A DNA stretch of 64,000 nucleotides from Gammaproteobacteria bacterium (lineage in GTDB: Bacteria; Pseudomonadota; Gammaproteobacteria; JAABTG01), in NCBI GenBank assembly GCA_034522055.1, contig JAXHLS010000006.1, positions 962,790 through 1,026,789 on the forward strand, in the 5' to 3' direction. Every line of letters starts with the position of its first letter. The stretch's first letter is position 1. The notes below the pieces were generated by a model, which was not told the origin of the DNA, searched no databases, and saw only the letters and a list, made by a program, of their open reading frames with translations. Of the stretch, positions 26,817-50,864 are shown piece by piece. The translations under genes were made by a program, and so were the position numbers.

Positions 26817-27022
26817 GGGGGGAAGGATAATGCATATGGGGCGGGTTGTCGGACTGAAGTCCGACCTACAGTCCGACCTACAGCCCGACCTACAGAGACA
26901 CCACCACCGTCTGTTCCTGCGGCACCCGTGTAGGTCGGGATTCATCCCGACATCAAACCCCACCGCATGCACCACGGGCCGGATCGGAACCCCTATCCTT
27001 AGGTGTCGGGATAAATCCCGAC

Positions 27023-28159
<1,137 letters not shown>

Positions 28160-31216: not shown

Positions 31217-31221
31217 CCGCC

Positions 31222-31929
31222 ATGAACGACTATCACCACAACGCCGATCCCGTCGAGTTGGAGAAGTTCTCCGCCCTCGCCTCCCGCTGGTGGGACCCCA
31301 CCAGCGAGTTCAAGACCCTCCATGACATCAACCCGTTGCGCCTCGGCTACGTGGAGCGCTTCGCCCCCCTGGCGGGCAGCACCGTGGTGGACGTGGGCTG
31401 CGGCGGCGGCGTGCTGGCGGAGGCCATGGCCCGAGTCGGGGCCACCGTCACCGGCATCGACCTGGCCGCCCCCAGCCTCGACGTGGCCCGGCTGCACGCC
31501 ATGGAGTCGGACCTGGAACTGGAATACCTGCACACCTCCGCCGAGGCCCTGGCCGACGAGCGGCCCGGCACCTTCGACGTGGTCACCTGCATGGAGATGC
31601 TGGAGCACGTACCGGACCCCGCCAGCACCGTGGCCGCGTGCGCGCGGCTGGTGAAACTCGGGGGCCATGTGATCCTGTCCACCCTCAACCGCAACCCCAA
31701 GAGCTACCTGTTCGCGGTGGTGGGCGCCGAGTACCTGCTGCAGATGCTGCCCCGGGGCACCCATGACTACGCCCGCTTTATCCGGCCCTCGGAGCTGGAG
31801 GCCTGGACGCGGGCCGCCGGCCTCACCCTGGACGACCTCACCGGCCTCAGCTACAACCCCCTGACGAAGCAGTACCGGCTGGGGCGGGACATCTCGGTAA
31901 ACTACCTGGCCCACGCCCGGCGTGACTGA
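31222..31929 (+). CDS. ubiG: Ubiquinone biosynthesis O-methyltransferase
   Basis: UbiG N-terminus ([33 protein letters not shown]) and SAM motif ([13 protein letters not shown]). Confidence 0.85.
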
Positions 31930-32578
31930 ACCCGTGGGCACGGTGCTGTTCGATCTGGACGGCACCCTGCTCGACACCGCCCCGGACCTCGGCGCCGCCC
32001 TGAACCGCCTGCTGGCGGACATGGGCCGGGCGCCCCTGCCCCTGGAGCAGATCCGGCCCCACGTCTCCCATGGCGCCAGGGCCCTGCTGCGCCTCGGCCT
32101 GGGGCTGGAGCCGGGTGACCCCGGCTATGATGACCACCGGGCCCGGCTCCTGGACCATTACGTCAACGATATCGCCACCCACAGCCGCCTGTTTCCCGGC
32201 ATGGAGCAGGTGCTGGAGCACATGGCCGCCCACGGCATAACCTGGGGGGTGGTGACCAACAAGCCGGGCTGGCTCACCGGGCCCCTGATGGACGCCCTGG
32301 ACCTCACGCGCCACGCCGCCTGCATCGTCAGCGGCGACACCACGGCACACCCCAAGCCCCATCCCGCCCCCCTGCTCCACGCCTGCCGGACGGCCGGCAC
32401 GCCCCCCGCACGCTGCCTGTTCGTGGGGGACGCCGAGCGCGACCTGGTGGCCGGGCGGGCCGCCGGCATCCCCACCCTGGTAGCCCTGTTCGGCTACATA
32501 GACGCCGGGGAATCCCCCCATACCTGGGGCGCCGACGGCTACCTGGAAGGCCCCCTGGACCTGCTGCGGTGGCTGTAG
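31922..32578 (+). CDS. gph: Phosphoglycolate phosphatase (HAD superfamily)
   Basis: HAD motifs ([27 protein letters not shown]). Confidence 0.8.
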
Positions 32579-33471
32579 GGGGACCCGCGGGCGACGCGGA
32601 AGGCGACCTGCGCCACTGCGAGGCCATGGCCCGCAGCCACTACGAGAACTTCCCCGTGGCCTCCCTGGCCCTGCCGCGGCGCATCCGCCGCCCGGTGGCG
32701 GTGATCTACGCCTACTCCCGCACCGTGGACGACCTCGCCGACGAGGGTGACCTCGGGGACACCGAGCGCCTCGACCGCCTGGCGGCCACGGCGGACGACC
32801 TGGAGCGCGCCCTGGCCGGGGAGCCGGTAACCAGCCCCGTGCTGCGGGCCACGGCCCGGGTGATCCGGGATTTCCACCTGCCCACCCGTCCCTTTCATCA
32901 CCTCGTCAGCGCCTTCACCCAGGACGTGGTGAAGAAACGCTACGAGGACTTCCCCGAACTCATGGACTACTGCCGACGCTCCGCCAATCCCGTGGGCCGC
33001 CTGTTGCTCCATCTCACGGCCAACGACAGCCTTCGCAATCTGATCGACTCGGACCACATCTGCAGTGCCCTGCAGCTCATCAACTTCCTCCAGGACCTGG
33101 AGCAGGACCTCCACGAGCTCGGGCGCATCTACCTGCCACGGGACGAGATGGAGTCCTTCGGGGTCACGGAGGGCCACCTGTGGAACCGTATCAGCGACGA
33201 GGCCATGGTGGACCTCTACCGCTTCCAGGTGCGCCGCGCGCGGGACCTGCTGCTGGAAGGCGCACCCCTGGGCGCGCGCCTCGGCGGCATGTTCGGGGTG
33301 GAGATTAGGACCATCGTGACCGGCGGCCTCGCCGTGCTGGACCGCATGGAGACCCTGGAAAACGACGTCTTCGCGCGGCCCCGCCTGAGCCGCGGCGACC
33401 GCCTGCGCATCCTGTGGCGCGGAATCAGCGGCACCCGCGGCCGCGGCCGCGCCACCATGCCCGGGACGTGA
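32569..33471 (+). CDS. hpnC: Squalene synthase HpnC (squalene/phytoene synthase family)
   Basis: HYENFPVAS, YAYSRTVDDLADEG and QLINFLQDLEQD motifs; overlaps the gph stop. Confidence 0.75.
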   Translation: MAVGGPAGDAEGDLRHCEAMARSHYENFPVASLALPRRIRRPVAVIYAYSRTVDDLADEGDLGDTERLDRLAATADDLERALAGEPVTSPVLRATARVIRDFHLPTRPFHHLVSAFTQDVVKKRYEDFPELMDYCRRSANPVGRLLLHLTANDSLRNLIDSDHICSALQLINFLQDLEQDLHELGRIYLPRDEMESFGVTEGHLWNRISDEAMVDLYRFQVRRARDLLLEGAPLGARLGGMFGVEIRTIVTGGLAVLDRMETLENDVFARPRLSRGDRLRILWRGISGTRGRGRATMPGT

Positions 33472-33524
33472 CGCCGGCGGCATTCTGGTAACCTGGGGCC
33501 CTACCCCGCCACCGTGGTCCCGCC

Positions 33525-33908
33525 ATGTCCCGCCTCGCCGCCTACCTCGCCCTCTGGCCCGTGCTCGCCGTCATCGGCGTCGCCAACGGCATCCTGCGCG
33601 AGGCCACCTTCGGGCCGCACCTCACGGAGATCCATGCCCACCAGCTCTCCACCCTGCTGCTGATGGCCCTGTGCGCCATCGCGGTGTGGCTGTTCGCGCG
33701 CCGGGAGGCCCCGCTATCGTTCGAGGAGGCCCTGACCGTCGGCCTCGCCTGGCTGGTCCTCACCGTGGCCTTCGAGTTCACCTTCGGGCGCCTGGTGGCC
33801 GGCCATTCCTGGCACCACCTGTTGCAGAACTACGACCTCGCCAACGGCCGCCTATGGCCCCTGTTCCTGGGGTGGCTGGCCCTCCTGCCCTGGCTGATGG
33901 GCCGCTGA
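33525..33908 (+). CDS. Small integral membrane protein (4 predicted TM helices)
   Basis: 127-aa hydrophobic ORF between hpnC and hpnD. Confidence 0.45.
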   Translation: MSRLAAYLALWPVLAVIGVANGILREATFGPHLTEIHAHQLSTLLLMALCAIAVWLFARREAPLSFEEALTVGLAWLVLTVAFEFTFGRLVAGHSWHHLLQNYDLANGRLWPLFLGWLALLPWLMGR

Positions 33909-33969
33909 TGGCCGGCGCCTGTCCATCGCGGGCGGCATCCGGCATCATAGGCGCAGCCCCCGCCACCCC

Positions 33970-34860
33970 TTGCCCATGACCCCCGACCAGTACTGCCAGC
34001 AGAAGGCCGCCCGCAGCGGCTCCAGCTTCTACTACAGCTTCCTGTTCCTACCGCCCGAGCGCCGGCGCGCCATCATCGCCCTCTACGCCTTCTGCCGCGA
34101 AGTGGACGACGTGGTGGACGAGTGCAGCGACGCCGCCCTGGCCCGCACCAAGCTGGCCTGGTGGCGGCAGGAGGTAGAACGGATCTTCGCAGGCGGGGCC
34201 CAGCACCCCGTGGCCGTGGCCCTGGCCCATACCGTGGAGCACTTCGACATCACCGCCGGCCAGCTCCACGAGGTCATCGACGGCATGGAGATGGACCTGG
34301 AACAGTCCCACTACGAGACCTTCGGCGAACTCGCCCTCTACTGTCACCGGGTGGCCGGCGTGGTCGGCCTGATGTCGGCGGAGCTGTTCGGCTACCGCAA
34401 TCACCAGACCCAGAAGTACGCCCACAACCTGGGCCTCGCCTTTCAGCTCACCAATATCCTGCGGGACGTGCGGGAGGACGCCATGCGGGGCCGGGTCTAC
34501 CTGCCGGCCGAGGAGCTGGCCCGCTTCGACGTGAACCCCGACGGCCTGCGCCGCGGCCAGGCCGGCCCCGGGGCCATCGAACTCTTCCGCTTCCAGGCGG
34601 ACCGCGCCGAAAGCTACTACACAAGGGCCCTGGAGCTGTTGCCGGAGGAGGACCGTTACGCCCAGCGCAGCGGCATCATCATGGCGGCCATCTACCGTGC
34701 CACCCTGGAGGAGATCCGCCGCGACGGCTTCGCCCTCCTGGACCATCGGGTCTCCCTCACCCCCCTGCGCAAGCTGTGGATCGCCTGGCGTACCGCCAAC
34801 GCCGAGAGGCGCCGCCAGCGCCGCTACCTGCGGGGCCGGCCCCAGGTGGAGTCCCGCTGA
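33970..34860 (+). CDS. hpnD: Presqualene diphosphate synthase HpnD (phytoene/squalene synthase family)
   Basis: SSFYYSFLFLP, YAFCREVDDVVDE and LTNILRDVRED motifs. Confidence 0.75.
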   Translation: MPMTPDQYCQQKAARSGSSFYYSFLFLPPERRRAIIALYAFCREVDDVVDECSDAALARTKLAWWRQEVERIFAGGAQHPVAVALAHTVEHFDITAGQLHEVIDGMEMDLEQSHYETFGELALYCHRVAGVVGLMSAELFGYRNHQTQKYAHNLGLAFQLTNILRDVREDAMRGRVYLPAEELARFDVNPDGLRRGQAGPGAIELFRFQADRAESYYTRALELLPEEDRYAQRSGIIMAAIYRATLEEIRRDGFALLDHRVSLTPLRKLWIAWRTANAERRRQRRYLRGRPQVESR

Positions 34861-34904
34861 CCCAGGAAGCGCGAGATGGACTGCCGGCCCGCGGCAACGG
34901 ACTG

Positions 34905-36215
34905 ATGCCGCTGCTAGTGGTGGGTGCCGGCTGGGCCGGGCTGTCCTGTGCCGTGGAACTCGCGCGCATTGGCCACGAGGTGACGGTGCTGGAGGCCGCC
35001 GCCGAGGTGGGCGGCCGGGCGCGCCGGCTGGAGGTCAATGGCATGCCCCTGGACAACGGCCAGCACCTGCTGCTGGGGGCCTACGCCCATACCCTGGCCA
35101 TGATGGAGACCGTGGGCGTCGACCCGGCCGAGGCCTTCCTGCGCCTGCCCCTGGGGTTGCGGGTGCTGGAGCGCGACGGCCCCGTCGTGGCCCTGCGCGC
35201 GGGCCCCCTGCCGGCCCCCCTCCACCTCGCCTGGGGCCTGGCCACCTGTGAAGGTCTGTCCATCAAGGAGCGGCTCGGTGCCCTGGGCCTGGCGGTGCGC
35301 GGCTTCTCGAGGCCGCCGACCGCCGCCCGCGACTGTACCGTGGCCCAGTGGCTCGACGGCCAGCCGCCGCGGGTGCGCCGCACCCTGTGGGAGCCTATGT
35401 GCCTGGCCGCCCTCAACACCCCGGTGGAGCAGGCCTCCGCGGCGGTGTTCCTGCGGGTCCTGGCAGACGCCTTCCACCACCGGCGGCGGGATGCGGACCT
35501 GCTCATCCCCCGCGGGGATCTTGGCGGCCTGCTGCCACGACCGGCCCGGGCCTTCATCGACGCCCACGGCGGCCAGGTTCTCACGGGCCGCCGGGTCACG
35601 GGGCTGGTGCAGGAGGCGGGCCGTATCGCCGGCGTCGCCACCAGCGCGGGCGTGCTGCGCGCCCGCCACGTGGTGGTGGCCACCGCCCACCATGGCGCGG
35701 CGCGGCTGCTGGCACCCCTGCCCGGCGGCGCCGCGCTGGCGGCGGACCTGCGGCGCCTGGGCCACCAGCCCATCTGCACCGTCTACCTCCAGTACCACCC
35801 CGCCACCCGCCTGGGCTTCCCCATGGTGGGCCTGGCCGGGGGCATCGCCCAGTGGGTGTTCGACCGCGCCGCCGACGGGCGCCGGGGGCTGATGGCGGTG
35901 GTGGTCTCCGCCGCGGGCCCCCACATGGCCCTGGATCGGGACACCCTGGCGGCGCGGGTCCAGGCCGAGCTGGCCCACCATTTCCCGGCCTGGCCGCCCC
36001 CCCTCTGGAGCCGGGTGATCCGGGAACGCCGCGCCACCTTCGCCTGCCGCGCGGGGGAACAGGACCTGCGCCCGCCGCACCGCGGCCCCCTGCCGGGGCT
36101 GTGGCTGGCGGGGGACTATACCCGCACGCCCTATCCCGCCACCCTCGAAGGGGCGGTGATGAGCGGGCTACAATGCGCGCGGGAAATCCATCACCACACC
36201 GAGGCCCCCCCTTGA
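34905..36215 (+). CDS. hpnE: Hydroxysqualene dehydroxylase HpnE (FAD-dependent amine-oxidase family)
   Basis: Begins with an FAD dinucleotide-binding fold (LLVVGAGWAGLSCAVELARIGHEVTVLEAAAEVGGRA). The longer 34122..36215 ORF is an upstream read-through in the same frame. Confidence 0.75.
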   Translation: MPLLVVGAGWAGLSCAVELARIGHEVTVLEAAAEVGGRARRLEVNGMPLDNGQHLLLGAYAHTLAMMETVGVDPAEAFLRLPLGLRVLERDGPVVALRAGPLPAPLHLAWGLATCEGLSIKERLGALGLAVRGFSRPPTAARDCTVAQWLDGQPPRVRRTLWEPMCLAALNTPVEQASAAVFLRVLADAFHHRRRDADLLIPRGDLGGLLPRPARAFIDAHGGQVLTGRRVTGLVQEAGRIAGVATSAGVLRARHVVVATAHHGAARLLAPLPGGAALAADLRRLGHQPICTVYLQYHPATRLGFPMVGLAGGIAQWVFDRAADGRRGLMAVVVSAAGPHMALDRDTLAARVQAELAHHFPAWPPPLWSRVIRERRATFACRAGEQDLRPPHRGPLPGLWLAGDYTRTPYPATLEGAVMSGLQCAREIHHHTEAPP

Positions 36216-36970
36216 ACAACCAAGACCCACGGCGCTACCAGGCGCCGCCGCACCTGCTGGCGGATCGTGTCATCCTGGTCACCGGTGCCGGTGGCGGCAT
36301 CGGCCGGGAGGCCGCCCTCGCCTACGCCCGCCACGGCGCCAGCGTGGTCCTGCTGGACCGCTCCGTGCCCGGGCTGGAAGGGGCCTACGACGACATCGAG
36401 GCCGCCGGCGGACCCCAACCGGCCATCTACCCCATGGATCTCCTGGGGGCCACGCCCGACGACTACGCCGACCTGGCCGCCAATCTGACGTCCAACTTCG
36501 GTCGCCTCGACGGCCTGTTGTCCAACGCCGCCGTCCTCGGCGACCTCACCCCCATCGACCACTATCCCCCCGAGACCTGGGCCCAGGTGCTCCATATCAA
36601 CCTCAATGCCCCCTTCCTGCTCATTCAAGCCCTGCTGCCCCTGCTGCGCCGGGCCCCGGACGCCGCCATCCTCCTCACCACCGCCGCAGTGGGCGCCCGG
36701 GGCCGCGCCTACTGGGGTGCCTACGCGGCGGCCAACGCCGGGCTCGAGAACCTGGGCCAGGTGCTCGCCCATGAGTTGGAGGACACCACCGTGCGGGTCA
36801 ACGCCATCGACCCCGGCCCCGTACGCACGGCCCTGCGCAAGCGCGCCTACCCGGGCGAGAACCCGGCCCACCTGGCCCTGCCCGCGGACATCATGCCCGC
36901 ATACCTGTTCCTCATGGGGGCGGATAGCATGGGCATCACAGGACTACGCCACCTCGCCCAGGACGCCTGA
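36173..36970 (+). CDS. SDR-family oxidoreductase (YciK-like)
   Basis: Rossmann motif (ILVTGAGGGIGREAAL) and the SDR catalytic region. The start is ambiguous: ATG 36173 overlaps hpnE; TTG 36212 is an alternative. Confidence 0.7.
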   Translation: MRAGNPSPHRGPPLNNQDPRRYQAPPHLLADRVILVTGAGGGIGREAALAYARHGASVVLLDRSVPGLEGAYDDIEAAGGPQPAIYPMDLLGATPDDYADLAANLTSNFGRLDGLLSNAAVLGDLTPIDHYPPETWAQVLHINLNAPFLLIQALLPLLRRAPDAAILLTTAAVGARGRAYWGAYAAANAGLENLGQVLAHELEDTTVRVNAIDPGPVRTALRKRAYPGENPAHLALPADIMPAYLFLMGADSMGITGLRHLAQDA

Positions 36971-37044
36971 ATGGCGTACCTCCCCGAGGGTCGATGAGCG
37001 GGACCACCACTCCTACCGACCGCCGCCCCCGCGAGTCGGGGCCA

Positions 37045-37085
37045 ACCACCCGTCATACCGGGCCCGACCCGGTATCCAGGGGCCG
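37045..37085. repeat. REP-like palindrome, family 2 (second copy)
   Basis: See 18150..18190. Confidence 0.55.
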
Positions 37086-37272
37086 GTGGCAGCACGAACG
37101 ACCCCGCCCCCCAAAGCGCACCGCGTCACCACCCGCCGCAGGAACGGTGGCGGCAGTTTGCTGCCGCCCGGCGGCAATCGAGGAACGTCAAAACTTTGAC
37201 CATCGCGCCCCGCGCAACGAAGAACAGAGTTTAACTTATTGTAAATAAAGGATTATCACCATCCTCTTTGGT

Positions 37273-37289
37273 TGGCACGCTATTCGCTA
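37273..37289 (+). promoter_or_regulatory. Candidate sigma54 promoter TGGCACGCTATTCGCT upstream of the GGDEF gene
   Basis: TGGCACG-N4-TCGC with exact -24 GG / -12 GC spacing. It is preceded by an AT-rich tract (possible IHF site) and followed by a hairpin (GAGGCTT-GCAG-AAGCCTC) plus TTTTCT at 37299..37330. Confidence 0.4.
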
Positions 37290-37415
37290 GGAGTACCGCG
37301 AGGCTTGCAGAAGCCTCCGACTTTTCTCCATTGCCTTCTGACCATGGACGTCCTTTTTTTTCGCGCGGTCACGCGCCGGCAATAGCGTGCTCACGAGCCA
37401 GCAAGAGGCGGTATC

Positions 37416-38336
37416 ATGCAACTGAACGCGATATGGGATGTGATGGATGATGGCGGCGCCATGACAAACGATGTCCCCGAGGTGCCGGAGTCGCCCCGGC
37501 GGGCCGTGGTGGGCAACGACGACCTGCTGCGCCTGACCCAAACCCTGCAGACCACGCTCAATGTTCAGCGGCTGCTGGAGCTCTTCACCCAGGAATGCGC
37601 GAAGGTGATCCCCTTCGATGGCCTCGGCTTCGTCAACGAGGCCGACGGCATGCAACTCCTCATCGGCACCACTGCACGCCACTCCTGCGGCTACCGCCTG
37701 TCCCTGGAGACGGAATGCCTGGGCGAGATCACCTTCAGCCGCGCCATCCCCTTCACCACACGGGAGACCATGGCTCTCGACTTCCTCGGCAGCCACCTGC
37801 TCTACCCCCTGCGCAACGCCCAACTGTATCAGCGGGCGCTGCTGGTGGCGGCCAAGGATCCCCTCACGGGGGCCTTCAACCGCGCCACCCTGGAGCAGAG
37901 TCTGCACCGTGATACCAGCCTGGCGAAACGCCACGGCACCCCCTTCTCCGTGATCATGCTGGACCTGGACCACTTCAAGGATATCAACGACCGCCATGGC
38001 CACATGACCGGCGATTGCGTGCTGAAGTCGGCGGCCCGCCTGTTCCAGGAATGCGTGCGCGATAGCGACACCCTGTTCCGCTTCGGCGGCGAGGAGTTCA
38101 CCATCCTCCTCAGCAACAGCGACCGCGAGGGGGCCCGCCAACTGGCGGAGCGCATACGGGGCTTGCTGGCCGGGCGCACCATCCACTGCGACGGCCATGA
38201 CATCCAGATCACGGTGAGCGCCGGGGTGGCCCAATGGTCCGGCGACGAATCCCCGGACCGGGTGCTGCTGCGGGCCGACCAGGCCCTGTACGCAGCCAAA
38301 GACCAGAGCCGCAACCGGGTGGCCCTGGCGCCCTGA
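37416..38336 (+). CDS. Diguanylate cyclase (N-terminal GAF-like sensor + GGDEF domain, active-site GGEEF)
   Basis: LTGAFNRATLEQ, DHFKDINDRHGHMTGD and LFRFGGEEF motifs. Confidence 0.8.
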   Translation: MQLNAIWDVMDDGGAMTNDVPEVPESPRRAVVGNDDLLRLTQTLQTTLNVQRLLELFTQECAKVIPFDGLGFVNEADGMQLLIGTTARHSCGYRLSLETECLGEITFSRAIPFTTRETMALDFLGSHLLYPLRNAQLYQRALLVAAKDPLTGAFNRATLEQSLHRDTSLAKRHGTPFSVIMLDLDHFKDINDRHGHMTGDCVLKSAARLFQECVRDSDTLFRFGGEEFTILLSNSDREGARQLAERIRGLLAGRTIHCDGHDIQITVSAGVAQWSGDESPDRVLLRADQALYAAKDQSRNRVALAP

Positions 38337-38377
38337 ATGCGTCCCGGGGCGCCAATGGACCGCGGTGGCCCCGGTCC

Positions 38378-38517
38378 TACATCAGCAGGACCATCAGCCC
38401 CACCACCACCAGGATCACCACGATAACCACCCCCTTGGCGATGATGAGGTTGCGCAGGAAGGCCTTGTCCGCCGGCCCCGGGTCGGTATTTCGCGTCTCT
38501 TCATGCTCGTTTTCCAT
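38378..38517 (-). CDS. Small (46-aa) single-TM protein not in the ORF track
   Basis: GGAGATATGGAAAAC start context with a perfect SD. Sequence MENEHEETRNTDPGPADKAFLRNLIIAKGVVIVVILVVVGLMVLLM. Downstream of ligA on the same strand. Confidence 0.35.
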
Positions 38518-38544
38518 ATCTCCGCACCTCAGGTCCGCGTTGCA

Positions 38545-40991
<2,447 letters not shown>

Positions 40992-41010
<19 letters not shown>

Positions 41011-41711
41011 TCCACCGTGGACACCACCCGCACCTTCTTGATGTGGGGGTTGTTGCGGTCCCGCGGGCTGATGGAGAACTGGCCCTGGGAGGCGCGGCGG
41101 ATCTTGCCCAGCCGGCTCGCGGAGTCGGCGGCGAACTTCTCCGCCACCTCGCGGGCCTTGGTGGTGGCCTCCTCGATCATCTCGGGCTTGACCTCGTTCA
41201 GGCGCGTGAACAAATATTCGGGCTGGGTGTCGTAGTTGCCGCCCGAGAACACGATGCCCTGGCGGCCGAGATCGGACAGGCCCTTCATCATATCGCGCAC
41301 CTCCCTCACCCTGCCGGAGTACACGGTGACGCTCTGCTGGGCGCTGTAACGGAACTCCGCCCGCGGCCCGCCGCCATACTGCTGGGCCGACTTGTCGTTG
41401 ATCACCGGCGGCGTGACCGACACCTCGCTGTCCTCCAGGCCGCGGGCCGCCAGGAAGGCGCGGATCTTGCTCGAACTCTCGTCCAGGGAGGTATACAGGG
41501 CCTGCAGGTCGTTGCCGGCGTCGGTGTACTGGATGGGCCAGATGACGACGTCGGCCGGATACTCCCGTTCCGACAGGCCCTTGACGGTGACGCTGCGCTC
41601 CAACAGCTTGACGTCGACGGCCGCGCGGCCGGCCTGCCAGCCCAGCACGGCCAGGCCCAGGAACAGGAAGGCCCCGAGGACGAAGGCGCTACCGACGTTT
41701 CGCTTTTCCAC
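40992..41711 (-). CDS. SIMPL-domain periplasmic protein (YggE/DUF541-like)
   Basis: Start at GTG 41711 (GGGAGA RBS), signal/TM segment VGSAFVLGAFLFLGLAVLGW, then a SIMPL-like domain. The N-terminal 158 codons of the track ORF are repeat and intergenic sequence. Confidence 0.6.
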
Positions 41712-41850
41712 CTTAGAATCTCCCGGCCACTGCGGCCAACGGTTAATGTACCCCACGCCCGACGCCCGGGGACAGGCGGGCCCGACGGATCCTAAACGGG
41801 GTCGGGATGGAGCGCCACGCGCCGGCCCCCACCACTCAGGGAACACGACC

Positions 41851-42039
41851 ATGGACACCACGAAGATAGTCATCGGCGGCTCGAACAGCGGCCAGGTGAT
41901 GCTGGCCATCTCCGAGTTCGGTGTGGGCGAGGCCATCGCCAAGTTCGTGGCCCGCGGCGTCGGCTCGAGTATCGGCCGCCAGATCGGCGCCCGGCTGGTG
42001 CGCGGGCTCCTCGGCTCCCTCCTGGGCGGGCGGCGCTGA
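41851..42039 (+). CDS. Small Gly-rich membrane protein (YeaQ/YmgE-like?)
   Basis: 62 aa: MDTTKIVIGGSNSGQVMLAISEFGVGEAIAKFVARGVGSSIGRQIGARLVRGLLG. AGGGA RBS 8 nt upstream of ATG 41851. Confidence 0.35.
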   Translation: MDTTKIVIGGSNSGQVMLAISEFGVGEAIAKFVARGVGSSIGRQIGARLVRGLLGSLLGGRR

Positions 42040-42101
42040 GGACAGCATGGTGGAGCCATGCCCCGCCCCCGCCGGCCCCAGAAACCCCGCCTGCCCCTGA
42101 C

Positions 42102-43571
42102 ATGACCGGCCTCGAACTCCTGCCCGTCTTCCTCGCGGCCCTCAACGTCGCCATGGTGTTGATAGGCGTCTACAACGTCCTGTACCACCCGCGGGAGCCG
42201 CGGGCCATGCTGGCGTGGATACTGCTGTTCCTGCTGCTACCCGTGGTCGGCGTGGTGCTGTTCTTCCTCATGAGCGACCCCAAGCGCCGGCGCAACCGCC
42301 GCCGCCTGGCGCGCCATCGCCAGCGCCTCAACCCCACCCTGTGGCGGGTGCTCCACGAGGCCCAGCGGGACTTCTCTCCCCAGGCCGGCCCCCATGAGCT
42401 GCCTTCGGCCCTCATCAAGTTCGTGCGCCTCGCCACCCGCATCAACGACCGCGAGCCCCCCACCATCGGCAACGCGGTGGAGATCTATCACGACCGTGCC
42501 GCCGACTCCTGGCGTGCCCTCCTGAACGCCGTAGCCGGGGCCCGCCACCACGTCCACGTGGAATATTTCATCTTTCGCGCCGACACCACGGGCCGGAAGC
42601 TGGCGGCGCTGCTCCTGGAGAAGGCCCGGGAGGGCGTGAAATGCCGGCTGCTGCTCGACTTCATGGGCTCCTGGCGTTTTCCCGCCGGCCTAGCCCGGGA
42701 GCTGCGCGCCGGCGGCGTGGAGGTGGTGTACTACATGCCGCCCCTGCCGTGGCTGGGCAAGCGCTGGCGGCTGCGGGTCAACCTGCGCAATCATCGCAAG
42801 ATCGCCGTCATCGACGGCCGCGTCGCCTTCACGGGCAGCCAGAACATCGGCGACGAGTACCTCGATGCCAGCCACCCCCTGGGGACCCGCATCGACACCC
42901 AGCTGCGCATCACCGGCCCGGCAGTCTACAAGTTCCAGGAGGTGTTCATCGAGGACTGGCATCTGTCCACCGGCGAGGACCTGTTCGCCGAGGCCTACTT
43001 CCCGCCACCCGCCACCGCCGATGGGCCGGGGGAGATCGTGCAGGTGATCCCCTCGGGCCCCGATTACGACACCCGCATCATGCATCATCTGCTCATCGCC
43101 GCCATCGCCGCCGCCGAGGACTCGGTGTGCATCGCCACCCCCTATTTCGTGCCCGACACCACCATGGTCCTGACCCTCGAGGCCGCCGCCTTCCGCGGCG
43201 TCAGGATCCGCATCCTGGTACCGGCACATTCCGACCATGTCATCGCCCTGTGGGCGGGCCGCAGCTACTACGAGGAGATGGTGAATGCCGGAGTCGGGAT
43301 CTACGAGCACGTCGGCAGCTTTCTCCACTCCAAGGTGGCGATCATCGACGAGCACTGGGCCATGGTGGGCTCCGCCAACATGGACGAGCGCAGCTTCCGC
43401 CTCAATTTCGAGATCACCACCGTGCTCTACTCCACCGGCGCCGTGACCGAACTGCAGCAGGCCTTCGAGGGTCTGTTCGCTACTGCCAGCCCGCTGCAAA
43501 ACCCGGCGCCAAGAACCCGTCTCGAGCGCCTCAGGCTCGGCCTCGCCCGGCTGTTCGGGCCCATCTATTGA
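42102..43571 (+). CDS. cls: Cardiolipin synthase
   Basis: Two N-terminal TM helices and two HKD motifs (NHRKIAVIDGRVAFTGSQNIGDE; LHSKVAIIDEHWAMVGSANMDERS). Confidence 0.85.
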   Translation: MTGLELLPVFLAALNVAMVLIGVYNVLYHPREPRAMLAWILLFLLLPVVGVVLFFLMSDPKRRRNRRRLARHRQRLNPTLWRVLHEAQRDFSPQAGPHELPSALIKFVRLATRINDREPPTIGNAVEIYHDRAADSWRALLNAVAGARHHVHVEYFIFRADTTGRKLAALLLEKAREGVKCRLLLDFMGSWRFPAGLARELRAGGVEVVYYMPPLPWLGKRWRLRVNLRNHRKIAVIDGRVAFTGSQNIGDEYLDASHPLGTRIDTQLRITGPAVYKFQEVFIEDWHLSTGEDLFAEAYFPPPATADGPGEIVQVIPSGPDYDTRIMHHLLIAAIAAAEDSVCIATPYFVPDTTMVLTLEAAAFRGVRIRILVPAHSDHVIALWAGRSYYEEMVNAGVGIYEHVGSFLHSKVAIIDEHWAMVGSANMDERSFRLNFEITTVLYSTGAVTELQQAFEGLFATASPLQNPAPRTRLERLRLGLARLFGPIY

Positions 43572-43659
43572 TGGTCGGCGCCCGCCGGGACGTTGCACCG
43601 GCCCGGCCCCCATGTTCTACCCTGAAGGTGAGGACCAACGGACAACGAGGAGGCCCACC

Positions 43660-44136
43660 ATGACCCTCACCCTGCACTCCCCGGCCTTCGGCCACGAAGA
43701 CGAAATCCCGCGCCGTTACACCTGCGAAGGCGAGGACATCTCCCCGGCCCTGGAGTGGACGGGCGTGCCCGGCGGGGCCCGTAGCCTCGCCCTCATCGTG
43801 GACGACCCGGACGCCCCGGACCCCGCGGCGCCGCGCATGACCTTCGTCCACTGGGTGCTCTACAACCTGCCCCCCGACAGCCAGAGCCTGCCCGAGGCCT
43901 GTACCGCCGCCCTGCTGCCACCCGGCACGGGAGATGGCCTGAACGACTGGCAGCGCAGCGGCTACGGCGGCCCCTGCCCACCTATCGGGCGGCACCGCTA
44001 TTTCTTCAAGCTCTACGCCCTGGATCGGCGCCTGGAAGGCCTCGAAGCGCCCACCAAGGAGGAGTTGCTGCGGGCCATGGAGGGCGCGGTGCTCGCCCGG
44101 GGCGAACTCATGGCCACCTACGAAAAGGGAGATTAA
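43660..44136 (+). CDS. YbhB/YbcL-family PEBP (Raf kinase inhibitor-like) protein
   Basis: LIVDDPDAP, HWVLYNL and GPCPPIGRHRYFFKLYALD motifs. Start trimmed to MTLTLHSPAF. Confidence 0.75.
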   Translation: MTLTLHSPAFGHEDEIPRRYTCEGEDISPALEWTGVPGGARSLALIVDDPDAPDPAAPRMTFVHWVLYNLPPDSQSLPEACTAALLPPGTGDGLNDWQRSGYGGPCPPIGRHRYFFKLYALDRRLEGLEAPTKEELLRAMEGAVLARGELMATYEKGD

Positions 44137-44163
44137 GGCCCGGTAAAATCCGGGGCCGCGCCC

Positions 44164-46116
44164 TCAGGCGTCGAGGAGTTCCCGCACCCGCCGCGCCAGG
44201 TCCGCCATCATGTAGCGCTTGTTCAAGATCTCGTCGCCGTCGGGGTGCAAACCGGCGGAGTGGGACAGGGCGTCGAAGGAGTATCCCGAGGTATACAGGA
44301 CCCGCATCCCGGGCTTGAGGGCCCGGGCCTCGCGGCCGACGTCGAAGCCGGTCATCCCCCCCGGCATGATGACGTCGGTGAACACCAGGTTCACGGGGGA
44401 GCGGGCCAGGACCCGCAGGGCCGAGGCGCCATCCACGGCCTCGAGTATTTCATACCCCAGGTCCCGCAGATAGCAGGCCACGGTGTCCCGCAGGTTGTCG
44501 TCGTCCTCCACCACCAGGATGGTCTCGCCACCACCGCTGACGGCACCCTCGGCGGGAGCGGTCTCCCGGGCCTCCGTCTCGCCCCTGAAGCGCGGAAAGT
44601 AGAGCTTGAGGGTGGTGCCGAGGCCGACCTCGCTGTAGATATTGACGCCCCCGCCGGACTGCTTGACGAAGCCGTAGACCTGGCTGAGACCGAGGCCCGT
44701 ACCCTTGCCCGTGTCCTTGGTGGTGAAGAAGGGTTCGAAGGCCCGGGCCTGCTCCGTCTCGGTCATGCCCTTGCCGTCGTCGCTCACCGTGACCGCCACG
44801 TAGTCCCCCGGCTCCATGCCCTCGTAGGAGCGGGTGTAATTGTCATCGAGATGTACGTTGGCCGTCTCGATGACCAGGGAACCACCATCGGCCATGGCGT
44901 CGCTGGCATTGACCGCCAGATTGATGAGGGCATTCTCGGCCTGGCCAGGGTCGATGGAGACGGGCCACAGGTCCTCCGCGGGCTCGAGCCGGAGGTCGAT
45001 GGACTCGCTCAGGGTGCGTTTAAGAAGCTCCCAGGTACCCGTCACCAGCGCGTTGAAATCCGTAACCTCCGGCTCCAGGTGCTGGCGGCTGGCGACGGCC
45101 AGCAGCCGGCGGGTCAGCTCGGAGCCCCGCCGCACGGCGTCGATGGCGACCCGCAGGCGGGAGAGCACCTGCTCCTGCAGCGGCGATTTGTCGCGCTCCA
45201 GATAGCGCTCCGCCAGTTGCAGATTGCCCAGCATCACGCTCAACAGGTTGTTGAAATCGTGGGCCACCCCTCCCGTGAGCTGGCCCAGAGCCTGGATGCG
45301 TTCCACCTGGCGCTTCCGATCCTCCACGGCCTTGAGCTCCGTGACCTCCCGCAATACGCCGGTGACGGCCATGGGTCTGGCCTCGCGATCCACGCTGAGG
45401 GCAATGCGCACGTCGAACCACCGGTAATCCGCCTCCCCCCGGGGCCGCAGCCGGCCCTCCACCCATGCGGGACCGCCGTGGTCGATGGCCTGCCGGAAGG
45501 TCGCCAGGATCCCTTCCAGGTCCTCCGGGTGGACCAGGGACTGCCACAGGGCCGGGTCGTTCACCAGCTCGTCCGGCCCGTAGTGCAGGATGGGTTCCAC
45601 TACCGGGCTGACGTAGGTGATGGCGAAGGTCGCCGGGTCCAGGCTGAAGAGCACGTCGGGGATGGCCGCCACCAGGCCCTGGAGGGTGGCCTCCTGGGCC
45701 TCCAGGCGGCGCTGGCTCTCCGCCACCTCGAGATACTTCTTGTAGAGCTTGTCGGACAGCCGCGCGCCGGTGCGGCGGTCCAGATCGTCCTCGTCCAGGC
45801 CGCCGCCGGGCACGTGGGCCGGGGCCGGGCCCTCGGCCAGGACCTCGTCCAGGGCCTCCAGCAACTCGTCCGGCGGCATGGGCTTCAGCAGGAAACGGGA
45901 GGCCCCCAGGTCCATGGCCAGCCTGGCGTCCTCGCCATCCACGAAGGTCCCGGTGTAGAAGACGAAGGGGATGTCCCGCAGCCGCGGGTCCCGGTTCAGG
46001 GCGCGCCGCAGGCCGAAGCCGTCCATGTTGGGCATGAGGATGTCGGAGATGATGAGGTCGGGCAGCCAGTCGCCGGCCTTCCCGAGGGCCTCGACCCCGT
46101 CCCTGACCACGGCCAC
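44164..46116 (-). CDS. Hybrid sensor histidine kinase/response regulator (REC-PAS-HisKA-HATPase-REC) with a disrupted 5' end
   Basis: HisKA (GGVAHDFNNLL), HATPase (GLGLSQVYGFV) and a C-terminal REC (ILVVEDDDNLRD...FTDVIMPGGMTGFD). The N-terminal REC domain extends in frame upstream to 46188 (ILCADDDESSRLIVEAAL), but an ATG-TAG pair at 46189..46194 precedes it. 46116 is the track's GTG start. Confidence 0.7.
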   Translation of the reverse strand: MAVVRDGVEALGKAGDWLPDLIISDILMPNMDGFGLRRALNRDPRLRDIPFVFYTGTFVDGEDARLAMDLGASRFLLKPMPPDELLEALDEVLAEGPAPAHVPGGGLDEDDLDRRTGARLSDKLYKKYLEVAESQRRLEAQEATLQGLVAAIPDVLFSLDPATFAITYVSPVVEPILHYGPDELVNDPALWQSLVHPEDLEGILATFRQAIDHGGPAWVEGRLRPRGEADYRWFDVRIALSVDREARPMAVTGVLREVTELKAVEDRKRQVERIQALGQLTGGVAHDFNNLLSVMLGNLQLAERYLERDKSPLQEQVLSRLRVAIDAVRRGSELTRRLLAVASRQHLEPEVTDFNALVTGTWELLKRTLSESIDLRLEPAEDLWPVSIDPGQAENALINLAVNASDAMADGGSLVIETANVHLDDNYTRSYEGMEPGDYVAVTVSDDGKGMTETEQARAFEPFFTTKDTGKGTGLGLSQVYGFVKQSGGGVNIYSEVGLGTTLKLYFPRFRGETEARETAPAEGAVSGGGETILVVEDDDNLRDTVACYLRDLGYEILEAVDGASALRVLARSPVNLVFTDVIMPGGMTGFDVGREARALKPGMRVLYTSGYSFDALSHSAGLHPDGDEILNKRYMMADLARRVRELLDA

Positions 46117-46188
46117 ATCGTGGCCGCGGGCGGTCAGGGCCGCCTCGACTATCAGCCGGGAACTCTCGTCGTCGTCGGCACAGAGTAT

Positions 46189-46552
46189 CTACATCCGTGC
46201 CGTAGGAACGGGCGGAGGGATGTCTCTGTAGGTCGGGATTCATCCCGACATTACCGCTCCGATTCTGTCGGCTGCCAAGAGCAGCCGACCTACGCCTCTG
46301 TCCTTCTCCCCAGGGAAAATGGGAAAGGGGAACGGGGAAAAGATTACCACCCGTGCGTCCGCTCTGCTGACGCCGAAACGGTGGATTAGCTGCGCCTTTT
46401 CGAACTGCCACTCCTCCCTGACCTTCTTCCTTTTCGCGCCTTTCGCGACTTTCGTAGTTACCGCTTTTGTTTTTTTAATAACCCTGACCTTCTCCCTTTT
46501 CGCGTCTTTCGCGGTTACGCTTTTAGTAGGTCGGGATTCATCCCGACATCCC
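46189..46552. repeat. Copy 2 of dispersed repeat A (MITE-like), with only 2-3 GGGAAA(T) units
   Basis: About 90% identical to 60733..61033, in the same orientation. Carries an extra internal duplication (CCTGACCTTCTTCCTTTTCGCGCC...CCTGACCTTCTCCCTTTTCGCG). Confidence 0.8.
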
Positions 46553-46566
46553 AAGCCCAGCCGGGA

Positions 46567-47235
46567 TCACCAATCCAGTTTCATCTGCACGCCCACGGCC
46601 GGAGCGGGCTCCAGGGAGCCATCGTCATCGAAGAGGGCGTCGCCTTTGCCTCCATGGCGCCATCCCCGGCCACGCCCCAACTCGCTGGGTCGGCCATAGT
46701 GCATGCGCCAGGACATCCCCTCGCCCGTCACAAGCTCTGAATGCAGATGTTCGGTGATGCCCCGCAGTGGGCTGCCAAGGAATTGCAGCAGCGGATCCGG
46801 GCCGTCAGCGGCGCTCGCATCCGGGTCCGTCAGAAGCTGCGGATCCGTGGCCACGGCGGCATCGGACTCGAATACCACCGGGGCCAGGGTCCGATACCAG
46901 GGGCCGCTACCAGCCCCAGGGGTCACATCCGACCCTTTGATGGCCTCGGCCAGCAACCGCGACAGGCTGGCGAGGGCGGGGCGCGGATCCCACGGCGCCG
47001 GGGCTGCGTGCGCTTCGGCCACTCCCCCGGGGGCCTTGAGTTCCGCTCGCGTGCCGGCCTCGGCGTTGGCCACCCTCACGCCACCATCCAGACCCAGGAA
47101 CAAGCCGTCCTCCACCCCGTGGTCGGGGTCGCCGTCAGCCGCGACCGCCCCTGGGGATACGGCCACCACCAACAGCATCAGAGTCCACGCCAAGCCGAGG
47201 GACAGGCGCCAGTTGAGCGATCGGAAGGGCAACAT
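46567..47235 (-). CDS. Hypothetical secreted protein
   Basis: Signal peptide (MLPFRSLNWRLSLGLAWTLMLLVVAVSPGAVAA) and an Asp/Gly-rich mature part ending VQMKLDW. No family assignment. Confidence 0.45.
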   Translation of the reverse strand: MLPFRSLNWRLSLGLAWTLMLLVVAVSPGAVAADGDPDHGVEDGLFLGLDGGVRVANAEAGTRAELKAPGGVAEAHAAPAPWDPRPALASLSRLLAEAIKGSDVTPGAGSGPWYRTLAPVVFESDAAVATDPQLLTDPDASAADGPDPLLQFLGSPLRGITEHLHSELVTGEGMSWRMHYGRPSELGRGRGWRHGGKGDALFDDDGSLEPAPAVGVQMKLDW

Positions 47236-47419
47236 GGCCGTAAGAATAGCACCGGATCTCGGAAATGCCGCCCCTGTCACACTCCAAGCACAGGCCGTTC
47301 TGGACCTTCGCGGCGGCAAGGGCTATCCGCCCCGGAGTGCTCCCGCCACGGGCAGGAACACGACCGGGGCATATACCCTCGTTTCCCTGCCCCCGGCCCT
47401 CGTCTCCCTGACCCCGGCG

Positions 47420-49681
47420 TCAGGAGGCGCGCACCGCGGCTAGGGCGGTCATGTTCAGCAGGCCGCGCACGGTAATGGACGACGTGACGATATGGGCGGA
47501 TCGCGCAGTGCCGAGGAGCAGCGGCCCGATGGCAATGCCCTCCCCTACCTGCTTCAACAGGTTGAAGGCAATGTTGGCGGCGTCCTGGTTGGGCATCACC
47601 AGCAGGTTGGCGCGGCCCGTGAGGCGCGAGCCCGGGAAGCGCGCCAGGCGCATGGCCTCGGACAGGGCCAGATCGCCGTGCATTTCCCCCTCCACCTCCA
47701 ACTCCGGCTGCTCCGCCCGTACCATGGCCAGGGCTTCGCGCATCTTGCGGGCGCTGGCCGAATCATGGCTACCGAAATTGGAGTGGGACAGCAACGCCAC
47801 CTTGGGTTCCAGACCGAACCAGCGTACGCCCTCGGCGGCCAGCCGGGTGATGGCGGCCACCTCCCGGGCATCGGGTTCCTCCAACACCCGGGTATCGGCG
47901 ATGAAGATGACGCCGGAGGGCATCACCAGGGCATTCATGGCAGCCAGACAGGGGGCCTCCGCGGCCCGCCCGATAACCTCCCGAATGGCCTCCAGATGCT
48001 GCAGATACCGGCTCACGGGCCCGCACACCAGGGCATCGGCGTCGCCCTCGGCCACCATCATGGCGGCCAGGGTGGTGGGGCTGTCCCGCAACTGGTCCCG
48101 GGCCTCGCCAGGGGAATAACCGCGGCGGGCCACGCGTTCATAATAGGCATCGCCGTAGACCGCGTGGTCAGCCAACAGGTGGGGCTCGGCGACCTCCACG
48201 TCGTCGTCGAGACGAATCGACAGGCCGATATCGGCGATGCGTTCCTCGATCACCCCGCGCCGCCCCACCAGCACCGGCCGTGCGATGCCCTGGTCCACCG
48301 CCTGCTGGGCCGCTTCCAGCACGCGCTGATCCTCGCCTTCCGAGTACACCACCCGCCGTACCTGGGCCTGAGCGCGCTCGAACACCGGCCGCATGGTGAG
48401 ACCGGTGACAAACACCTTGTCCTGCAGGCTGTTGCGGTAGGCCTCCAGATTGGCCAGGGGGCGGCTCGCCACCCCCGAGTCCATAGCCGCCCGGGCCACC
48501 GCCAGGGGCACGTATTCCATGAGGCGCGGGTCGAAGGGCGTCGGCAGCAGGAAGTCCGGTCCGAAACGTGGCGTCCGGCCGCCGTAGGCGCGACGCACCA
48601 CGTCCGAGGGCTCGGCGCGGGCCAGGGCGGCGATGGCCTCCACACAGGCCAGCTTCATGGCCATGTTGATGTCCGTCGCCCCCACGTCCAGGGCACCCCG
48701 GAACAGGAAGGGGAAGCACAGGACGTTGTTCACCTGGTTCGGGAAGTCCGAGCGCCCGGTGGCCAGCAGGGCATCGGGGCGCACCGCCCGTGCCAGGTCG
48801 GGCATGATCTCGGGCACCGGGTTGGCCAAGGCCAGGATGATGGGGTGTTCCGCCATGGTCTCCAGCCAGAGGGACTGAAGGACTCCGCCCGCGGACAGGC
48901 CGAGGAAGATATCGGCCCCTTCCAGGGCCTCCGCCAGGGTACGGCACGCGGTGGCCCGGGCGTAGCGGGCCTTGTAGGGGTCCATCTGCTCGCTACGGCC
49001 CTCGTGGACCACCCCGGCGATATCCGTTACCAGGATATTGCCCGGATTGAGGCCCAGGGCCACCAGCAGGTCCAGGCAGGCCAGGGCGGCGGCACCCGCC
49101 CCCGCGGTCACCAGGCGCACCTCGCCGATGTCCTTGCCCACCACCGTCAGGGCGTTCCTCACCGCCGCCGCCACCACGATGGCGGTACCGTGCTGGTCGT
49201 CGTGGAACACCGGGATCCCCATGCGTTCCCGCAGGCCCTGCTCGATGATGAAGCACTCGGGGGCCTTGATGTCCTCCAGGTTGATGCCGCCGAAGGTGGG
49301 CTCCAGGCGGGCCACCGTGTCGATGAAGGCTTCCGGGTCGGTCTCGTCCACCTCGATGTCGAAGACGTCGATGCCGGCGAACTGCTTGAACAGTACCGCC
49401 TTGCCCTCCATCACCGGCTTGGCCGCGAGGCCGCCGATGGCCCCCAGGCCGAGTACTGCCGTGCCGTTGGAGACGACCGCCACCAGGTTGCCGCGGGCCG
49501 TATAGTCGGCGGCGCTGGTGGGCTCGGCCTGGATGGCTTCGCAGGCCGCCGCCACCCCCGGCGAATAGGCCAGTGCCAAGTCACGCTGGGTGGCCAGCGG
49601 CTTGGTGGCGCGGATCTCCAGCTTGCCCGGTCGCGGTTGGCGATGGTAGTCCAGCGCCGCCTGGCGCAGATCTTCTGCCAT
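47420..49681 (-). CDS. maeB: NADP-dependent malic enzyme (malic enzyme + phosphotransacetylase-like domain)
   Basis: [25 protein letters not shown] and C-terminal PTA-like domain motifs. Start trimmed to [13 protein letters not shown]. Confidence 0.85.
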
Positions 49682-49727
49682 AGGATCGGTGCTCCCGTGG
49701 GTTGTGATGACGGCCGTGACCCGGGGC

Positions 49728-50864
49728 TCAGCCGGCGATGGCGGTGGGAATCCAAGGGGTCTGCTCGCTGAAATCCCCCAGGAAGGCGTTCTCCAGTTCC
49801 TCGTCCGGGCAATAACCGAGACCGGCCACCGCCCCGATATGCATATGTCCCGCCCGGGCATCCAGAGCCTCGCCCACGTCCCCCGCCAGCCAGTTGTCCG
49901 TCACCAGGCCGTGGACGCCCGCACCGGGCAGGGCGGCCGCCAGATGCAGGGCGCCACGGGTTCCCACGACGCTCTCGATGGCGGAGGTGATCACCGCCTC
50001 CTTACCCTCGCCGTAGGCCTTACGGGCGAGGGCCAGACAGCGCCGGGGCCCGCCGTGGGCGATGGGTTTCAAGACCAGCCGGCGCACCGGGCAGCGCTCC
50101 AACAGGTCCTCGGCGTTGCGCCCCGACAGGGATTCGTCGAGGGCGATGGGAAAATCCACCAGGCCCTGGAGGCGGCTCAGCATCTCCGGGCTGCAGGCAT
50201 CGAGGGGCTCCTCCAGGGACTCCACCGCCAGCTTGTTCAGCGCCGTGAGCACCCGGACCGCGGTCTCGCCGTCCCACATGCCGTTGGCATCCAGGCGCAA
50301 ACGGATACCGGGCTCGAGATGGGCCGTCAGGTCCTCGAGACGTTCGATGGCATCCCCCGGCGGCACGGTGATCTTGATCTTGAGCACCGTGAAGCCCTGG
50401 CGGGTCGCGGCCAGGGCGCGGGACTCCAGGCCTTCGTCCATGGGTCCGAGACGGGCGCTCACCGCCACCGATGGGGCGGCGTCAGGATCCAGCAGCCGAG
50501 CCAGCGGCACGCCGGCCCGCTTGGCCGTCAGGTCCAGCACCGCCGTCTCCACGGCGTTGCGGGCCGCCGGCGTCTCCCGCCATTGAGCGCCCAGGTGATC
50601 GACCAGGGCCAGAAGATCCGCCGCCTGACGGCCGGCACAGCCGAGGATGAACTGCTCGAGCTGGCGGCGCGCCACCATGGCGGTCTCGGTGCCGAACTCC
50701 GGCCATGGGGCACAATCGCCGTAACCCGTCACACCCGCCGCATCCTCGAGGCGCAACAGTAGGCCGCAACGTCCCACCCAGCGTCCCCGCGAGGTCACCC
50801 AGGGCGCCAACAGGGGCAGCCGGTAGGGCAGGAGTCGGGCACAGCGCAATGGCGGTTCGGCCAT
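49728..50864 (-). CDS. Enolase-superfamily enzyme, o-succinylbenzoate synthase (MenC)-like
   Basis: KIKI, LRLDANGMW and LEEP motifs of the MR/MLE family. Start trimmed to MAEPPLRCARLL. Confidence 0.6.
   Translation of the reverse strand: MAEPPLRCARLLPYRLPLLAPWVTSRGRWVGRCGLLLRLEDAAGVTGYGDCAPWPEFGTETAMVARRQLEQFILGCAGRQAADLLALVDHLGAQWRETPAARNAVETAVLDLTAKRAGVPLARLLDPDAAPSVAVSARLGPMDEGLESRALAATRQGFTVLKIKITVPPGDAIERLEDLTAHLEPGIRLRLDANGMWDGETAVRVLTALNKLAVESLEEPLDACSPEMLSRLQGLVDFPIALDESLSGRNAEDLLERCPVRRLVLKPIAHGGPRRCLALARKAYGEGKEAVITSAIESVVGTRGALHLAAALPGAGVHGLVTDNWLAGDVGEALDARAGHMHIGAVAGLGYCPDEELENAFLGDFSEQTPWIPTAIAG

Follow-up and report, generated by a model that had tools for sequence, protein, structure and literature searches.

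A hybrid histidine kinase gene probably decapitated at a rearrangement junction within a REP cluster of a gammaproteobacterial genome

The 64,000 nucleotides analysed here (hereafter the window; positions 962,790 to 1,026,789, forward strand, of contig JAXHLS010000006.1 in the metagenome-assembled genome (MAG) GCA_034522055.1, Gammaproteobacteria bacterium, GTDB lineage JAABTG01) carry on their minus strand a gene for a hybrid histidine kinase, whose 5' end is fused to a cluster of repetitive extragenic palindromic (REP) sequences. We conclude that this gene has probably been decapitated recently and is silent or nearly so, following a rearrangement whose junction falls inside the cluster, which is of the GTAG type and resembles bacterial interspersed mosaic elements (BIMEs). 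Under this scenario the ancestral gene would have stood at the end of an operon, behind genes for a large hybrid kinase, a 477-aa kinase and a 123-aa receiver, would have started at TTG-AAG behind a GGAGG Shine-Dalgarno (SD) sequence and would have been translationally coupled to the receiver gene through a TTGA overlap. A rearrangement with its junction inside a REP unit would then have put REP-cluster sequence in place of all that preceded the second base of codon 2, which by chance would put an ATG where the TTG stood and turn AAG into TAG. The gene has thereby lost its SD, start codon, translational coupling and operon promoter, which leaves an intact body of 674 codons that has no canonical start before its receiver (REC) domain.

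Junction between repeat and coding sequence

Rereading the minus strand gave ...CCGTTCCTACGGCACGG ATG TAG ATA CTC TGT GCC GAC GAC GAC GAG AGT... at the 5' end of the kinase gene, with GGCACGG directly 5' of the ATG, and both the sequence and the positions of the ATG (46194-46192) and TAG (46191-46189) are as the original prediction had described them. Translation after the TAG reads ILCADDDESSRLIVEAALTARGHDV / ILCADDDESSRLIVEAALTARGHDVAVV... and is free of stops down to 44164. The first canonical in-frame start past the TAG is a GTG (46116..46118, minus strand; ORF 44164..46116, 650 aa), which is the start in the first-stage gene track and in the gene call on a Logan contig (650 aa), and its use would delete the beta1-alpha1 region and the acidic DDD motif of the first REC domain. 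The NCBI protein MDZ7754522.1 (674 aa, MLCADDD..., 'response regulator') corresponds to a start at the near-cognate ATA at 46188, read as Met. The ATG had been proposed as the sole possible start, and it is indeed the only canonical one before the REC domain, but the NCBI annotation begins at that near-cognate codon. Three starts have thus been annotated or spotted for one gene (the ATA by NCBI, the GTG by a Prodigal-type call and the ATG-TAG by the original prediction), and, as the orthologs demonstrate, not one of them is the native start.

The two orthologs compared (P0002 and P0003; 675 aa, 82% and 81% identical to the window kinase) begin MKVLYADDDESS and MKILYADDDENS, and the DNA around their starts reads ctGGAGGcgacaga-TTG-AAG-GTA-CTC-TAC-GCC and ctGGAGGcgacacg-TTG-AAG-ATC-CTC-TAC-GCC. 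Their native start is a TTG at the position of the window's ATG, with a GGAGG site 7 nt upstream, and their codon 2 is AAG (Lys2), which the window replaces by TAG. The N-terminus that had been expected from the window sequence, M-x-ILxxDD, agrees with what the ortholog alignment returned (M-K-[I/V]-L-Y-A-D-D-D). All homologs inspected start with M-x-(x)-[IV]L-x-x-D-D and none starts at the position of GTG 46116, so the observation that would have spoken against an upstream continuation of the receiver domain, namely orthologs beginning at the equivalent of that GTG, was not made.

Upstream of codon 2 the window carries repeat sequence of the cluster. For a spacer-plus-GTAG motif, CCGTTCCNNNGGCACGGATGTAG, we counted 7 copies in the window where 0.01 would be expected, and the one at 46189-46211 agrees with it at all specified positions (0 mismatches), which bears out the suggestion that the ATG-TAG hexamer is REP sequence. 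This 23-nt spacer motif (CCGTTCCTACGGCACGGATGTAG, minus strand) ends in the GTAG that normally opens the next REP hairpin, and it is truncated there. Among the other six copies, five continue as GTAG-GTC[CG]G...CCGAC, that is into a REP hairpin, and the sixth (57193) is degenerate, with GTCG. At the kinase junction there is no complete REP unit; after the GTAG at 46189-46192 comes ATACTCTGTGCC, whose homology is to codons 3-6 of the orthologs. Of the consensus GACCTACATCCGTGCC that had been placed at this site, the part CTACATCCGTGCC is present (it recurs at 5905 and 6383), and the remainder is missing, gene sequence standing where the post-GTAG hairpin should follow.

The join can be written ...GGCACGGATGT(AG)|ATACTC. 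Homology to the two orthologs in blastn starts at 46190 and 46187, i.e. at the AG of codon 2, and this AG is common to the REP GTAG and the ancestral AAG, forming a 2-nt microhomology, whereas the T at 46191 is attributable only to the repeat. A point nonsense mutation from AAG to TAG within a native start region was also considered and is ruled out, because the 20 nt upstream are REP motif and not the orthologs' GGAGGCGACAGA.

Ancestral operon and synteny break

In the relatives, the kinase gene closes a four-gene operon composed of a large kinase (>761 aa), a 477-aa PAS kinase (HK477), a 123-aa single-domain receiver (REC123) and the 675-aa kinase, and its TTG start overlaps the TGA stop of the REC123 gene (TTGA). 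This arrangement is present at three loci (L001, L002 and L084), the third of which, a JGI metagenome contig, is 99.8% identical to L001; scans of genome and metagenome contigs for further orthologs added only this locus and returned no copy from the window's own species. Downstream, the PBP-family and PLD/cardiolipin-synthase (cls)-like genes are 82-88% identical in amino acids between L001 and the window, and because synteny is kept on this side the window gene is the positional ortholog. Upstream, neither the large kinase nor HK477 nor REC123 was found in the 64-kb window by tblastn and blastn.

What lies beyond the REP cluster belongs to another neighbourhood. The next gene is a hypothetical, signal-peptide-like ORF (46567..47319, minus strand; stop intact, no Pfam match), whose 3' part (46570-46992) is homologous to a 216-aa protein (hyp216) of the relative L165 (GCA_011389995.1). 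It is followed by an NADP-malic enzyme gene, maeB-like (47423..49681, minus strand; Pfam malic, Malic_M and PTA_PTB), the anchor of the foreign neighbourhood on the upstream side of the junction. Its product is 100% identical to NCBI MDZ7754524.1, from the 1.30-Mb MAG contig, and shares 91% identity with its counterpart in L165. The gene order in L165 is T2SS-E, T2SS-G, MenC-like, MaeB, cytochrome-like, hyp216, DUF2799 and Na/H exchanger. In the window, hyp216 ends at 46567, and DUF2799 and the Na/H exchanger lie at 26166-26816 and 24953-26146, such that the gap between hyp216 and DUF2799 is ~19.7 kb (26850-46566) as against 260 bp in L165 (7346-7577). This ~19.7-kb stretch, which runs from mtnA through to SIMPL, PLD/cls, PBP and the kinase, has REP clusters at both of its junctions: 46189-46566, where the truncated 5' end of the kinase forms one end of the stretch, and 26847..27084 at the other end (no strand assigned). 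No REPs of the window's family were seen in ~30 kb of the relatives' contigs, a weak negative given that short-read contigs tend to break at such repeats.

As the upstream genes are absent and the far side is a foreign neighbourhood, we infer that the start region was removed by a rearrangement with its junction inside a REP unit. The original prediction had instead described a REP insertion overlapping the start of the kinase, which does not fit with upstream operon genes that are missing from the window; likewise, a simple REP insertion between REC123 and the kinase is ruled out, since no large kinase, HK477 or REC123 occurs in the window and the far side is foreign. Whereas the junction sequence, the ortholog start and operon and the break in synteny are seen directly, the direction of the rearrangement, its mechanism (illegitimate or REP-associated recombination) and the loss of expression are inferred.

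Some further observations concern the same genes. The HK477 search found only one additional sequence, P0121 on locus L164 (Logan SRR28089850), a fourth lineage with ~85% nucleotide identity to both orthologs, whose contig ends 35 nt beyond HK477, in the REC123 gene; L164 may represent an organism closely related to that of the window in which the operon persists. The malic-enzyme ORF extends over 47420-49861 (minus strand), that is 813 aa from an ATG at 49861, as compared with ~753 aa for the NCBI protein and all homologs (start near 49681), and the extra 60 N-terminal codons are probably untranslated. L165 has a cytochrome-C7-like gene between maeB and hyp216 (5755-6384), and no gene occupies that position in the window, where the best match to it (24280-24837, minus strand, 55% aa) adjoins the Na/H exchanger, which suggests a further local rearrangement or a paralog.

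Integrity, constraint and expression of the kinase gene

The kinase body (44164..46188, minus strand; 674 codons plus stop, counted from the ATA right after the TAG) has the architecture REC-PAS-HisKA-HATPase-REC, with Pfam Response_reg, PAS, HisKA, HATPase_c and a second Response_reg all present, 0 internal stops and a GC content at third codon positions (GC3) of 0.91. Response_reg (PF00072) aligns residues 1-113 of the post-TAG ORF with profile positions 1-110 of 111, and therefore the entire receiver domain, beta1 and acidic DDD included, is encoded downstream of the TAG; with the match starting at residue 1, the earlier suggestion that the domain continues upstream of GTG 46116 is borne out. 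The domains are complete and retain their catalytic residues, namely the DDD pocket, the phospho-acceptor Asp (ISDILMP), the Thr (FYTGT) and the Lys (LLKP). In front of its first domain the gene lacks a canonical start backed by a ribosome-binding site, in that the sole ATG is followed by TAG and the next start, the GTG, lies inside the first REC domain (REC1). In domain order, length (~675-690 aa) and N-terminus (M-x-[IV]L-x-x-D-D) the protein resembles N-terminal-REC hybrid kinases annotated as CckA-like (P0015, P0090 and P0092), but unlike these the window copy has no initiator codon, no SD and no upstream cognate operon genes.

Substitution patterns revealed no relaxation of constraint on this body. 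In a three-taxon decomposition (Nei-Gojobori) the window branch had a dN/dS of 0.41 (dS 0.106) versus 0.30 and 0.35 in the orthologs, and lineage-specific nonsynonymous/synonymous codon changes numbered 28/31 in the window versus 80/92 in the orthologs (Fisher p = 1.0). The ORF offers 146 single-base routes to a stop, and neutral evolution along the entire branch predicts ~5 nonsense changes, versus 0 seen. The marks of an old pseudogene, a dN/dS near 1 and stops or frameshifts, were not found. Given neither relaxation nor stops, the decapitation is either recent relative to the ~13% nucleotide divergence from the relatives, or the gene still contributes to fitness; if the kinase is a pseudogene, it would, on these substitution counts, be a recent one.

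Signals for expression have changed more visibly. SD duplex energies in the window are -1.7 at ATG 46194, -3.3 at ATA 46188 and -1.7 at GTG 46116, compared with -9.3 kcal/mol for the orthologs, and a scan of 45900-47500 returned no sigma-70-like promoter and no terminator. Folding of 46120-46300 (minus strand) predicted the REP hairpins together with an 11-bp RNA hairpin (CGGCACGGAuGU / ACUCUGUGCCG, 46176..46202, minus strand) that is present in both the minimum free energy and the centroid structure and holds the ATG, TAG and ATA in its upper stem and loop; the z-score of the whole 181-nt fold is -3.2. The 3' arm of this hairpin uses codon 3, TGT (Cys, 46182-46180), which is TAC (Tyr) in both orthologs and which pairs with the REP spacer GGCACGG. 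The change from TAC to TGT is one of only 6 window-specific double substitutions in 674 codons, and with its place beside the junction it may be a coincidence, a by-product of the junction or selected. The original prediction had listed an inactive kinase, an N-terminally truncated one, or expression through readthrough or reinitiation; the loss of SD and operon, plus a predicted hairpin over the start region, favours inactivation or very weak expression.

Several points weigh against a silent, decapitated gene. The kinase body is without decay, with 0 stops or frameshifts in its 674 codons and no relaxed constraint, which fits continued function as well as it fits a very recent event, and the NCBI entry is a full-length protein that starts at ATA 46188. 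The upstream genes are co-oriented with the kinase, and transcription could read through from them. The linkage between the REP cluster and hyp216 rests on the MAG assembly (the 1.30-Mb contig), and the part of the genome covered is the 64-kb window, such that the upstream operon genes could survive elsewhere.

An alternative is weak synthesis of the complete kinase from ATA 46188, by way of read-through transcription from maeB and the hypothetical gene, in which case its expression would be rewired and not killed. We regard this as unlikely, even though the ORF is intact and unrelaxed, all REC catalytic residues are kept, and the ATA is both the codon directly after the TAG and the start of MDZ7754522.1. 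In E. coli reporters with a strong ribosome-binding site, AUA initiates at ~1-2% (0.02-3%) of AUG (Hecht et al., bioRxiv 10.1101/063800). The window is similar to those constructs in its ATA, here behind ATG-TAG and annotated as a start, but differs from them in that no SD precedes this codon (-3.3 kcal/mol, where the orthologs reach -9.3) and that the codon falls inside the predicted hairpin of 11 bp. Furthermore, the annotated start appears to have been chosen by homology, which is not evidence of use, and the signalling partners that are encoded upstream in the relatives are missing from the window.

A truncated kinase of 650 aa starting at GTG 46116 is more doubtful still; its first REC domain would be non-functional, having no beta1-alpha1 region or acidic pocket, and the PAS-kinase-REC core would be active. 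That GTG is the first canonical in-frame start and was chosen by the Prodigal-type call on the Logan contig (P0001), but it has no SD (-1.7 kcal/mol) and no inspected ortholog or homolog starts there. Selection on the REC1 segment has been equally strong (pairwise dN/dS 0.23-0.28, purifying), which also argues against a start that discards part of it, though this selection mostly predates the event. Without beta1, its central strand, a domain of the CheY fold would probably misfold.

We consider it very improbable that the REP junction acts as a functional 5' leader, in which the ATG-TAG, the ATA and the hairpin would tightly limit translation, perhaps in a condition-dependent way, under read-through transcription from the maeB region; if it did, REPs would have rewired the regulation of a two-component sensor detached from its operon.

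An artefact of sequencing or assembly, with a true genome that has AAG after the ATG or REC123 upstream, has next to no credence with us. The source is a MAG, REP clusters are classic sites of assembly error and the TAG is one base from AAG, but the 23 nt that include the T of the TAG agree with the REP-cluster motif wherever it specifies a base, and a unique join of REP to gene is not something that repeat collapse could produce. A separately assembled Logan contig from run SRR26473340, possibly the MAG's own data, is 100% identical over 2455 nt (window 46296-43842) with the same ATGTAG; it reaches 108 nt into the REP cluster and has no REC123 sequence there. The check for a read or assembly error at 46189..46194 that the original prediction had called for thus found the TAG reproduced in a second assembly. 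With the base being the one that the repeat consensus predicts and the Logan contig agreeing, a sequencing error at the TAG is judged unlikely.

Just as improbable is a regulated full-length kinase in which the REP-derived ATG-TAG works as a 'start-stop' mini-ORF or the TAG is read through, because the formal resemblance (an ATG with an adjacent stop, an in-frame REC and a constrained gene body) is met by no SD at a functional spacing (-1.7 kcal/mol), no conservation in the orthologs, which do not have the element, no tRNA genes and hence no suppressor tRNA in a scan of the 64-kb window, and a hexamer that is fully accounted for as repeat and stands at 6 other sites without such a context. Nothing supports programmed readthrough of the TAG.

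REP cluster, comparison with known systems and other repeats

The REP unit of this family, GTAGGTCGGGATTCATCCCGAC, consists of GTAG followed by a 7-bp stem and a 4-nt loop (GTAG+GTCGGGA-TTCA-TCCCGAC) and has 11 matches at <=3 mismatches in the window versus 0 expected. Its matches fall into five cluster sites (~5.9-6.4, 26.85-27.08, 46.19-46.55, 57.2-57.3 and 60.7-61.0 kb), occur in both orientations and share conserved spacers. Within the cluster at 46189-46566 there are two REP units of identical sequence and one variant REP, together with a copy of a longer element that we call repeat A and a duplicated 32-nt tail. Motif search placed one of the identical units at 46228..46249 (plus strand) and the second at 46526..46547 (plus strand), at the distal edge of the cluster.

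These features, a GTAG-tagged palindrome that is multi-copy, clustered and alternating in orientation with conserved spacers within the 64-kb window, are those of GTAG-type REP and BIME-REPIN elements (Di Nocera et al. 2013, PMC3733652; Nunvar et al. 2010, PMC2817692), which the window's family resembles in its 22-nt unit of GTAG plus a perfect 7-bp palindrome with a 4-nt loop, in its intergenic placement and in the supply of a TAG stop to an mtnA-like ORF. The termini of GTAG-tagged REPs often supply TAG stops to flanking ORFs, and REPs overlap ORF ends (PMC3733652). The kinase locus differs in that its TAG is at codon 2, at the 5' end of a gene, and in that the REP breaks off after GTAG and runs directly into coding sequence at a synteny break. 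With an accidental ATG-TAG from the repeat in front of an otherwise intact gene, the locus is most likely an ordinary, recently damaged gene and involves no new mechanism. Its value is mainly as an example for annotation and genome evolution, with three competing starts for one gene and a REP cluster that coincides exactly with a synteny breakpoint, cleanly splitting an operon between translationally coupled cistrons, which is useful for the study of REP/BIME effects on gene order in this gammaproteobacterial MAG lineage. Should the kinase turn out to be expressed, it would count as a modest case of a 5' leader derived from a repeat.

In enterobacteria, chromosomal rearrangements have been reported with REPs at their join points. 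A conceivable way to REP-ended junctions is the activity of TnpA-REP, also called RAYT, an enzyme that is guided by the GTAG tetranucleotide 5' of the hairpin and that cuts and religates REP DNA in single-stranded form (Corneloup et al. 2021, PMC8266576). The cleavage sites mapped for it are CT or CA dinucleotides that lie 5' or 3' of the complete REP (PMC8266576), whereas the kinase junction lies between the GTAG and the hairpin. Since those sites are outside the GTAG-hairpin unit, the junction is not that enzyme's signature, and RAYT cleavage as its cause is unsupported; illegitimate recombination at the 2-nt AG microhomology is at least as likely and fits at least as well. A Pfam scan of ten ORFs near the REP clusters found no RAYT/TnpA-REP (Y1 transposase) gene.

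Repeat A, an element of ~190-270 nt, is present in the kinase-side cluster at 46263..46454 (plus strand), where it opens with the variant REP GTCGGCTGCCAAGAGCAGCCGACCTAC (46267-46293) and has a GGGAAAT-like tract inside. The window has 3 copies that are 90-96% identical, at 5987-6251 (reverse complement), 46263-46454 and 60735-60972. They are bounded by REP variants and have a CGCGAAA-rich tail, and the GGGAAAT-like tract varies in length among the three. The tail is duplicated in the cluster as two 32-nt direct repeats that are 94% identical (46416-46447 and 46482-46513, spanning 46416..46513, plus strand). Repeat A could be a composite like a miniature inverted-repeat transposable element or a small RNA gene; it had no Rfam match, and an Rfam scan of the region and the window likewise returned no match.

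At the other end of the 19.7-kb stretch, the mtnA-like ORF (27023-28159, minus strand) runs into the REP cluster at 26847-27084, and its stop (27023-27025) is the TAG of a GGATGTAG motif. The Pfam IF-2B domain of this ORF ends at residue 344 of 378, and ~19 of its C-terminal residues are REP-encoded. Within the stretch there is also a 166-nt inverted repeat pair (29364-29529 and 40829-40994; 94% complementary, 11.3 kb apart), which belongs to a family other than the REPs, has no Rfam match and is mostly intergenic, with one arm overlapping the end of the ORF at 28834-29532. Lastly, two adjacent 88-nt copies at 13380-13467 and 13502-13589 are 78% identical, palindromic and contain CCCTACG...CGTAGGG, and these may represent a second REP-like family.

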